This document shows positions 36,001-39,000 of a stretch of DNA of 64,000 nucleotides, one piece after another. The position numbers were made by a program. The stretch lies in assembly GCF_055900595.2 (NCBI RefSeq), contig NZ_CM148325.1; one strand, given 5' to 3'. Position 1 is the first letter of the stretch; each line of letters starts with the position of its first letter.

Positions 36001-39000
36001 ATGTGAGAAATATTTTACCCGCTATTTTACCCATTGGCGCGGCTTAAGAGCTTATTTTTGAATTCACAATGGTCACGATATAACCATCTTGCTCGCCCGT
36101 GGATAACTTTGGCTTTTGGTAGGTCGCCGGACTTAATCCGGTCATAGATGAAGGTTTTACCGAAGCCAGTATCGGCCATGATGAATTTCAAATCAACCAG
36201 TGAATCAGGTTGTAGTTCGTGTTGCATGAGTGCTATCTCCGAATAGGGAATCGAACCTGCAAATCAGGCAATAAAAAACCGCATTGATGCGGCAATGGTA
36301 GGTCTGGATATCTTGAGAAATGAACGGGCCTCATCGAGTGTGAGGCTGTGGTTAGTCCTTGCGTAACTCGCTAATTCTTCTGTAAGTCTCTGGTGCTTTG
36401 TTTCCGTGTATCTTCATTTCAGACTTCAACAGAGCAACGAGAGAATCCCATTCGTTGAGGATGCCTTTGAATGCCGGAACGCGCTTTGCAACCTTGTCGA
36501 ATGAATCCCTGATTTCTGGAATCTGCTCGACAAGCGCAACGCATCGTCGGAAATCGGCTGCGTCATGTGGAGCACCGAAGCTATGACCATAGATATTCTT
36601 TTTCAGTCCACATGCGATTGAGGCAAGAGTTGCGCTACTGATGCCAACATCGCCAGTCGATTGCCATTTCAAAACCTTCATAGCCAAATCTGACATTTCT
36701 TGTCTCCAATAAAAAAACCGCCATCAGGCGGCTTGGTGTTCTTTCAGTTCTTCAATTCGAATATTGGTTATGTCTGCATGTGCTATCTGCGCCCATATTA
36801 TCCAGTGGTCATAGCAGTCGTTGATGTTCTCTGCTTCGATAACCCTGTTGAATGGCTCTCCATTCCATTCTCCTGTGACTCGGAAGTGCATTTATCATCT
36901 CCATAAAACAAAACTCGCCGTAGCGAGTTCAGATAAAAGAAATCCCCGCGAGGGCGGGGATGTTAAGTCGGTGGGGGTACAGTATGGATATCGAAAATTA
37001 TTGCGCGATTCTCATTACTCCCCTGGGAAAACATTATCTGGCAAGCATACGTTGTTGATGCTGTTTCACAACACGTAAACGTAAGCTGTCATAGGCCCAA
37101 TTGTAGAACATGGTATATGGTAGAAAGAAAAGGAAGAATCCTATCTCTAGTGTAAAAGCCTGTAACAGACTGACGCTCAGAATCCAGGACACCATAATGA
37201 CGCCGATCGCGATAAATCCACTTTCAAAGCCCAAAGCATGGAATGCACGAACTTTTGCAGTTCGTTTTACCTGATGAGCAGGCCAGTAGCGATCAAATAG
37301 CATGTTATAGATGATATTCCAGATCATTGCAGTTGAAGCCAACAAGATAGTCATCCCGCCCATTTCGAGTATAGTTCGCTGCATTAACCATGCTGTGGTG
37401 GGGGCCAGAATCGCAGTGGCAATTCCTTCAAAGCAAATAGCGTGAAAAATACGCTCAAGTAACGATCTGTGTTGAATCGCATTATGTTGCATAACTTACC
37501 TTTCTTACAGTTTCGACCGCGTTATGGAGTTGTGAGATTTTTATCGATTTATGTGATATATAAAAGATAGATACCATCGAAAAAATTGATAGATTATGCG
37601 TTACTCACTTGAAGCGTTAAGTACATTTGTTGAAGCGGTTTCCTGTGGCTCCTTTTCTGCTGCGGCACGAAGATTACGCAAAAGTCAGTCCGCAGTCAGT
37701 ACGTCAATTGCCAATCTTGAGGTCGATCTTGGTATATCATTATTCGATCGCTCTTCGCGAGAACCTGTGCTGACAGAGGAAGGAAAGAAAGTATTGAGTT
37801 ACGTTCATGCGATTTTGTCAGCCAGTGAACGTCTTGAGGAGGTGGCGGTTTCGCTTGCCGGAGAGACTGAAGCTCGTCTGACGTTTGTGCTTTCCGATAC
37901 CCTACACCCTGACTTATTAGAAGACATCATGGTGCAGTTTGATAGTCAGTTTCCACATACTGAGTTAGAGGTTTTAATTGGTGAGGATGTCGATGTCATC
38001 GATCTTTTGCAAAAAGAACGAGCGCAGATCGGCTTAATTGAGTCTCGGGAACACTACCCCACCGATATTGGCTCAACCCGTTTACCGATGCAAGCGTGGA
38101 TGGGCATTTATGTTTCGGCGTCACATCCACTGTCTGCAGAAAAAACAATCCAGCGGGAACAACTTCATTCATGGCGAGAACTTCGTCTTAATACTTATAT
38201 CGATAACCGGGAGATGATTGCCCGTGGACCGGTTTGGTCTGCACCTAACTATTTGTTGTTACTCAGTATGGCCGTACAGGGATTTGGCTGGTGCTCTCTG
38301 CCCTGTGCTCTGGTTGAGGAGTTTGCAACAGAAAAACCGCTGGTTCAGCTCGACGTACCTGGCTGGCCAAAGGCAATTTCTATCGATCTGCTTTGGAATA
38401 AAAAATCGCCACCAGGCGCGGCTGGAAATTGGCTTAAGCATCATTTACAGCATATCAATGCCCCAAATAGTCGAACTTAGATTAGTTAAAATATGGAATC
38501 CTGAAATAATCTATGTTGATATGTGGAGCCATCTTCCAGGCTCCCACCTAAATCATGTTAGCAGTTCCATTTTTTTGATGATTTCCGCATGAGCATCATC
38601 GTTATCCCCAGCGACAAATTGAATACAAAACCAGTGCTACCGCCATTGCAATTCCTACCGTTGCGAATGCTTCAGGCCAGCTCATTGATTCACCTCCTGC
38701 GGCGGTTCTGGTAGTGGTATCCAGAACAAGGCGTTCCCTAACCACGATAAAGTGCCGTCGCTCAACTCCACGTATTCCCCTTGCACCTGTCCTGCCATAT
38801 ACTCACCGTGCTTTGAATAAATTAAAATCCAATCATCTTGAGCGGGCATTCGCTCACTACAGCTTATCCAACCACCCGGAGTTACCGGAGAGTTGCCGCG
38901 TTCTTTAATGTGCAAGCGAGGCTCACCATCTTTTGGTTCAGGCCACTGGCGCTCCATGTTGATCTTCAATTTATCTTCCTGTAGTGGCACACTGAATTTG

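Follow-up and report, generated by a model that had tools for sequence, protein, structure and literature searches.

The 64,000-nucleotide stretch of contig NZ_CM148325.1 (RefSeq assembly GCF_055900595.2) analysed here, referred to as the window, contains two divergent genes that encode a small transporter of the PACE family and a LysR-type transcriptional regulator. It is very probable that they constitute a self-contained two-gene PACE efflux module, controlled by its LysR protein and carried by lambdoid prophages in Escherichia. Judged by its junctions, the pair is a lambdoid moron located in the early-left arm, between the ea22/DUF551 genes and xis. Positions are those of the window and the features are collected in Table 1.

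By its profile matches and motifs, the window pump is a member of the PACE family. Pfam searches returned two BTP domains (PF05232), one at residues 9-71 (model positions 1-63 of 64, E 2.2e-22) and one at residues 77-140 (model positions 1-64 of 64, E 2.1e-21). In NCBIfam, the model NF033665, 'multidrug/biocide efflux PACE transporter', was matched with 205.6 bits (E 2.9e-61) for a curated cut-off of 165 bits, and the PACE subfamily model NF033664 with 169.8 bits for a cut-off of 80. A regular expression for R..HA..FE found exactly two matches, RIFHAICFE at residues 14-22 and RAFHALGFE at residues 82-90, and a second motif pair was located at residues 58-67 (WNIIYNMLFD) and 130-135 (YNWAYD); both PACE motif pairs, 1A/1B and 2A/2B, were present. 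Residues R14, H17, A18, E22, W58, N59, N63 and F66, as well as R82, H85, A86, G88, F89, E90, Y126, T127, W132 and D135, were invariant in an alignment of 23 sequences that included the genuine AceI.

The pump displayed four hydrophobic peaks in a Kyte-Doolittle scan, and its lysines and arginines were concentrated at both ends of the chain and in the central loop (68-82). An AlphaFold2 model, built from an input of 23 sequences, consisted of four long helices (11-36, 41-69, 79-105 and 109-151) with a predicted local distance difference test score (pLDDT) of 86 and a predicted template modelling score (pTM) of 0.76. Both termini are predicted to be cytoplasmic, by the positive-inside rule alone. 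When solved structures were searched by sequence, no PACE relative was found, the sole match being noise (E 0.96). The 152-residue protein with a tandem two-repeat PACE architecture, R-x-x-H-A-x-x-F-E repeat starts (here at residues 14 and 82) and four transmembrane helices, which the original prediction had proposed for this gene, was thus recovered in full by profile search, hydropathy and modelling.

The partner gene, likewise predicted as a LysR regulator, encoded a complete one, with HTH_1 (PF00126) at residues 5-64 (E 1.1e-19) and LysR_substrate (PF03466) at residues 89-285 (E 1.9e-20). The AceR model NF052373 was its top NCBIfam match, yet with only 126.9 bits against a cut-off of 500, and the pump scored 93 bits with the AceI model NF033663, under the cut-off of 180. 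The aceR/aceI pair used as reference was taken from an Acinetobacter contig mislabelled in a phage collection; it passed its own models with 258.6 bits for the pump and 564.6 bits for the regulator. End-to-end identity to this genuine pair was 31 % for the pump and 29 % for the regulator. Orthology to AceI/AceR was therefore ruled out, as both equivalog cut-offs were failed at about 30 % identity. The earlier likening to aceR/aceI accordingly stood for the divergent LysR partner, for which AceR was the best model and could be aligned over the full length, but not for orthology. By sequence relationship, the pair belongs to the enterobacterial PACE subfamily typified by Salmonella STY3166.

The two genes, which lie at the positions originally given, are separated by 103 bp. 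In an alignment of three genera (Escherichia, Salmonella and Enterobacter), the half of this spacer beside lysR was conserved whereas the pump-side half was not. Two ATC-N9-GAT boxes, a variant of the T-N11-A LysR box with centres 33 bp apart, displayed ATC and GAT triplets that were invariant across the three genera. The motif occurred 21 times in the 64-kb window, which is not above shuffled sequence, and about 0.03 occurrences are expected per 103 bp; two conserved boxes in this spacer are therefore unlikely by chance. In Acinetobacter, two sites ahead of the weak aceI promoter are protected by AceR, which turns this promoter on when a ligand is present (PMC5961012; PMC7382281). Were CATAAC at 37526-37521 the -10 element of the pump promoter, the centres of the boxes would fall at about -69 and -36, that is, in the classical geometry of a recognition site and an activation site. 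The regulator and the boxes hint that the module may be controlled autonomously, although no clear promoter was seen and the hairpins downstream of the pump are part of the phage backbone.

The order of genes was the same in every Escherichia copy examined: an ea22-like gene, a dATP/dGTP pyrophosphohydrolase/DUF551 gene, the LysR gene in antisense and the PACE gene, followed by a 55-amino-acid gene (phrog_676), a 114-amino-acid gene (phrog_1229) and an excisionase. The pump was co-oriented with xis and int. Homology to the phage backbone ended at about 36970 and resumed at about 38557-38602, as seen in thousands of genomes and in Stx and other lambdoid phages, and the backbone outside these limits was widespread without the pair. 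Beyond the two genes, the module included flanks of about 60 bp and about 80-120 bp. A search for terminal direct or inverted repeats at its boundaries gave only short matches at chance level.

Three chromosomal settings were found. One was a near-complete lambda-like prophage beside torS in E. coli VCSW7 (loci L006 and L020, the latter NZ_CP082357.1), which ran from int and xis over exo, bet, gam, kil, cIII, N, cI, cro, cII, O, P, the nin genes, Q and the lysis genes to those for terminase, portal, head and tail. Another consisted of lambdoid prophages or remnants with a TorI excisionase, lying between argW and dsdC/dsdA (L010, L014). The last was formed by Escherichia albertii prophages beside ybhC (L015-19), a neighbourhood which we take to be the lambda attB region. 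Between these settings the cassette was 99.2-99.8 % identical over about 2.6-2.7 kb, from 36274 to 38979 or, in E. albertii, as far as 38897, and over a core of 1,708 bp the Escherichia copies differed from the window by at most eight substitutions. Sister prophages at the same attachment sites displayed other small genes at the module position. The pair was classified as a moron because the same junctions recurred at torS, argW/dsdC and ybhC while other genes occupied the position in sister prophages. As prophage cargo at three attachment sites, it also bears out the suggestion that it was acquired horizontally on a mobile element. We consider it somewhat more probable than the contrary that functional lambda-like phages move this regulated pump among E. 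coli lineages and E. albertii as a lysogenic-conversion module.

A survey by megablast of positions 36900-38600 found the pair in 13 of the 5,426 complete E. coli genomes (0.24 %), isolated from soil, water, goat, cattle, dog and human sources. In all 13, RefSeq named the products 'multidrug/biocide efflux PACE transporter' and 'LysR family transcriptional regulator'. Hundreds of contigs encoded the exact protein, the two most frequent variants being recorded on 486 and 977, and near-identical pump copies were also encountered in E. albertii. Four PACE clusters, some with mobile elements, had been reported in at most 0.2 % of 1,986 E. coli strains (PMC4406071; PMC6195760), and the flanks of E. 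coli PACE genes had been noted as 'transposase and phage' (PMC5840245). The pump, its rarity, its pairing with LysR and its probable lateral origin in E. coli were hence already known (PMC4337561, PMC4406071, PMC6195760, PMC5840245). What is added here is the vehicle, namely a defined lambdoid-prophage position, shared with almost the same sequence by prophages of three attachment sites and two species. It offers a concrete and testable route for the spread of a PACE pump in Escherichia; otherwise, little is gained beyond a correct annotation. With respect to annotation, some Salmonella PACE orthologues (160 amino acids, with a 9-residue N-terminal extension) were evidently misnamed 'Na(+)-translocating NADH-quinone reductase subunit E' at NCBI, as was one partial E. 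coli PACE copy.

The nearest named relatives of the pump were PACE proteins of Salmonella enterica and Citrobacter (80-83 % identity), followed by those of Leclercia, Kluyvera, Trabulsiella, Enterobacter and Klebsiella (62-75 %). In Salmonella Senftenberg and Enterobacter hormaechei the pair occupied a core locus, in the order araE (or a sugar transporter), kduD, kduI, acetyl-CoA acetyltransferase, LysR, PACE and amino-acid permease, that is, between the orthologues of yqeF and yqeG. In K-12 the corresponding order was araE-kduD-kduI-yqeF-yqeG, with 254 bp from yqeF to yqeG and no pair. This empty slot is consistent with the loss of PACE from the lineage of E. coli that has been proposed in the literature (PMC4406071) and, together with the low count among complete genomes, agrees with the earlier statement that the family is not part of the K-12 core.

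Homology at the DNA level between the window and Salmonella was confined to 37089-38452 (72.6 % identity), which comprises the two genes and the spacer. The proportion of nonsynonymous differences (pN) from Salmonella was 0.10-0.13, and that of synonymous differences (pS) 0.79-0.84, which is saturated; as synonymous sites were saturated, the ratio of the two substitution rates (dN/dS) could not be computed for Salmonella or Enterobacter, and pN and pS are given instead. On these values, the pump and regulator genes are under long-term purifying selection. GC content at third codon positions (GC3) of the pump and the regulator was 0.44 and 0.42 in Escherichia, 0.57 and 0.60 in Salmonella, and 0.72 and 0.68 in Enterobacter. 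Salmonella or Citrobacter as direct donor was rejected on account of the saturated pS and the far lower GC3 of the Escherichia genes. The direct donor would thus lie outside the named genera, in an unsampled or unnamed lineage, the next-closest proteins being just 83 % identical. Carriage of this subfamily on plasmids was not supported among plasmid records, in which close matches were large 'plasmid' entries with core chromosomal genes. Two of these (NZ_LN868944.1 and NZ_CP114989.1) held chromosomal neighbourhoods and are not evidence of plasmid carriage.

The pump is most likely a four-helix inner-membrane protein of two BTP repeats, probably dimeric, that would exchange cationic compounds for protons by way of the membrane-embedded Glu22. 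This residue was the key glutamate position in the window pump, as in the E. coli PACE homologue for which a review numbers it E22 (PMC5840245); it aligned with Glu15 of AceI, which is essential for function (PMC7382281). Likely substrates would be biocides of the acriflavine or bisbiguanide type, exported weakly, and natural substrates may be short-chain diamines. The LysR protein would bind both ATC-N9-GAT boxes of the spacer, sense a substrate and, like AceR at aceI, switch on the promoter of the pump. The whole would be carried as a 1.6-kb moron by lambda-like temperate phages and spread by lysogeny and by recombination among prophages, the window copy surviving in a decayed prophage remnant truncated by an insertion sequence (IS) in the dsdA-argW slot. 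In E. coli, the homologue ECTW07793_0407 from E. coli TW07793 raised the minimum inhibitory concentration of chlorhexidine to 0.39-0.78 from 0.195-0.39 µg/ml and that of acriflavine to 6.25 from 3.125 µg/ml (PMC4337561). From such an about two-fold effect the expected phenotype is weak, and its importance for biocide tolerance in the clinic is probably minor.

Several points weigh against a phage-borne, LysR-controlled efflux module. Transport by the window pump itself is argued by analogy; the effect of the E. coli homologue was only about two-fold (PMC4337561), and the identity of ECTW07793_0407 with the window protein could not be confirmed by sequence. STY3166 of Salmonella, the nearest tested orthologue (82 % identical), gave no resistance (PMC4337561), and diamine transport has been demonstrated for AceI-type pumps alone, which are 31 % identical. 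A sigma-70 consensus scan of the spacer found no convincing pump promoter; its only match (37620 to 37593, in the lysR coding start) places both boxes downstream of the transcription start, so that LysR might repress the pump as well as activate it. With regard to the phage, the pair was found in none of 50,697 records of sequenced phage genomes (tblastn and blastn), the PACE family was not found in PHROGs, the capsid gene of the most complete carrier prophage (VCSW7) was disrupted, and the window copy itself resides in a dead remnant. Matches to the pair that did appear in phage collections were rejected as mislabelled chromosomal contigs of Salmonella houtenae and Acinetobacter. Phage-filed records (AGRM01000002.1, CAKLQH020000020.1 and CAKLQF records), like the plasmid-filed ones, contained ordinary chromosomal genes, for example araE-kduDI-yqeF-type genes, cydAB and talA, and matches to them are no sign of phage carriage.

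Less favoured than biocide efflux, though to be taken seriously, is the explanation that the real task of the pump lies with a metabolite, such as a diamine, an amino-acid derivative or another small cation, which it would export or keep in balance, with the biocide effect incidental and the phage carrying a niche fitness factor. PACE genes belong to the core genome of many species, and biocides came too late to be their natural substrates (PMC6195760); the Salmonella and Enterobacter pair is neighboured by genes for an acetyl-CoA acetyltransferase and for the amino-acid permease orthologous to yqeG. The silence of STY3166 in biocide assays and the small effect of the E. coli homologue point in the same direction, as do the sources of the carriers, which do not represent a disinfectant-rich setting. 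This explanation overlaps, however, with the efflux module proposed above, and substrates of the subfamily have been assayed solely with the biocide and dye panel of PMC4337561.

It is improbable that the pair is inert baggage, silent or decaying, which hitch-hikes in defective prophages and is kept only through recent acquisition. The few substitutions that separate the Escherichia copies would have left little time for selection, the copy in the window is embedded in a remnant full of IS elements, the prevalence of the pair is low, and its AT-richness (GC 43-47 %) might expose it to silencing by H-NS. Nevertheless, both open reading frames (ORFs) were intact in all copies examined, even in remnants stripped of nearly all phage genes; all family-invariant residues were kept, the boxes of the control region were intact and the exact protein was found on the many contigs counted above. 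Even less credit is given to the idea that the pair was not brought by a phage at all but was inserted into a resident remnant by IS-mediated or other recombination, the phage context being coincidental. The IS3, IS30 and IS66 elements that abut the locus in the window, and the 'transposase and phage' flanks reviewed earlier (PMC5840245), would agree with such an origin; yet the module recurred with the same junctions in IS-free, near-complete lambdoid prophages, both at two further attachment sites and in a second species, it is devoid of terminal repeats, and the IS3 element of the window cuts a neighbouring phage gene and not a module junction. Carriage of an intact efflux module by lambdoid prophages accordingly remains the preferred explanation.

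Table 1. Coordinates of the PACE-LysR module and of neighbouring features in the window
Feature	Position	Strand	Remarks
PACE-family transporter gene	37034-37492	-	152 amino acids, ATG start; two tandem BTP domains
LysR-type transcriptional regulator gene	37596-38480	+	294 amino acids, ATG start; HTH_1 and LysR_substrate
Divergent control region	37493-37595		103 bp, 30 % GC
ATC-N9-GAT box 1, lysR-proximal, candidate LysR recognition site	37576-37590		T-N11-A type
ATC-N9-GAT box 2, candidate activation site overlapping a weak -35	37543-37557		50 bp upstream of pump ATG
Inserted module (moron), approximate extent	36974-38556		about 1.6 kb: pump, control region, regulator and flanks
Two terminator-like hairpins, 73-123 nt downstream of pump stop	36911-36961	-	shared phage backbone, outside module
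Gene for 55-amino-acid phage protein (phrog_676)	36724-36891	-	conserved cassette
Gene for 114-amino-acid phage protein (phrog_1229)	36352-36696	-	conserved cassette
torI, excisionase, KplE1/CPS-53-type prophage; marks prophage end	36027-36227	-	adjoins csc/dsdA chromosomal genes
3' remnant of dATP/dGTP pyrophosphohydrolase/DUF551 gene	38682-38979	-	cut by IS3-family element at about 38980
IS3-family element truncating the prophage remnant	38980-40220	+	orfA 39016-39354, orfB 39381-40220

Of the cassette, the window retained only torI, the 114- and 55-amino-acid genes, the PACE-LysR pair and a 3' stump of the DUF551 gene. Beyond the IS3 element, an IS-rich island with IS30, IS66, a GntR regulator and an autotransporter was encountered. 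No tRNA gene was found inside the window; relatives have argW on the far side of the island. The original placement of the pair 'inside the island' was fair, although more precisely it resides in a decayed prophage bordering on an IS-rich island, in a chromosomal slot that ends at argW in relatives. The public assemblies designated here L008 and L011 matched the window over 35900-39400 with 100 % identity, and so did L012 and L013 over the 1.7-kb module.

To the right of the pair, the island displayed degraded IS copies (fragments of IS3, IS30, IS66, IS21 and IS4). The IS30-type transposase ORF (40118-41083) encoded 321 amino acids with a divergent C-terminal tail, while intact IS30 transposases of relatives comprise 383. 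On the other side, positions 30000-35503 held a cscR-type LacI regulator, cscA, cscK and cscB beside dsdA, in replacement of dsdC and most of dsdX. This csc cluster, which serves sucrose utilisation, adjoined the prophage end at torI, whereas in E. coli Rb-50 that end met an intact dsdC-dsdX-dsdA.

Two carrier prophages displayed further peculiarities. In VCSW7 (L020, locus positions 8436-20682), an element of about 11 kb split the major capsid gene of the prophage; with genes for a tyrosine recombinase, a primase, a capsid protein, a head-decoration protein, an Icd-like protein and an abortive-infection protein, it looks like a phage satellite resembling a phage-inducible chromosomal island (PICI). 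In the Rb-50 prophage (L014, AP025682.1, locus positions 158-490), a 110-amino-acid gene of the SMR family (PF00893) adjoined replication gene P, which, together with the PACE pair, brings two small cation efflux pumps into one prophage. The cation/proton efflux pump EmrE, also a four-helix protein, is encoded in the lambdoid prophage DLP12 of K-12.

Compared with AceI/AceR of Acinetobacter baumannii, the pair displayed the same family, architecture, motifs, glutamate in the first transmembrane helix and divergent LysR partner, as well as two regulator sites in the intergenic region, which here are candidate sites. In contrast, AceR operator sequences are not of the ATC-N9-GAT type, and AceI is a core gene and specific for chlorhexidine. 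Resemblance was closer to the STY3166-type pair of Salmonella, with a pump 82 % and a regulator 78 % identical, the same divergent layout, a spacer also of 103 bp with the same two boxes, and a pump above the NF033665 cut-off; that pair, however, belongs to the chromosomal core and is not prophage cargo, and the published screen detected no resistance with STY3166.

ECTW07793_0407 (EII93401; Hassan et al. 2015, mBio; Slipski et al. 2017) was alike in being rare, laterally acquired and flanked by phage and transposase sequences, in bearing the same RefSeq product name, and in the prevalence of the commonest E. coli cluster (0.2 %, versus 0.24 % here), but the lambdoid moron position, the three attachment sites and the boxes of the partner regulator do not figure in these publications. 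With the morons of lambdoid phages, finally, the module shares the condition of an accessory unit, unrelated to phage functions, that is placed between backbone genes and absent from sister phages; it differs from these morons and from emrE in having its own transcription factor and in its position, which is the ea/xis region and not the nin or late regions.

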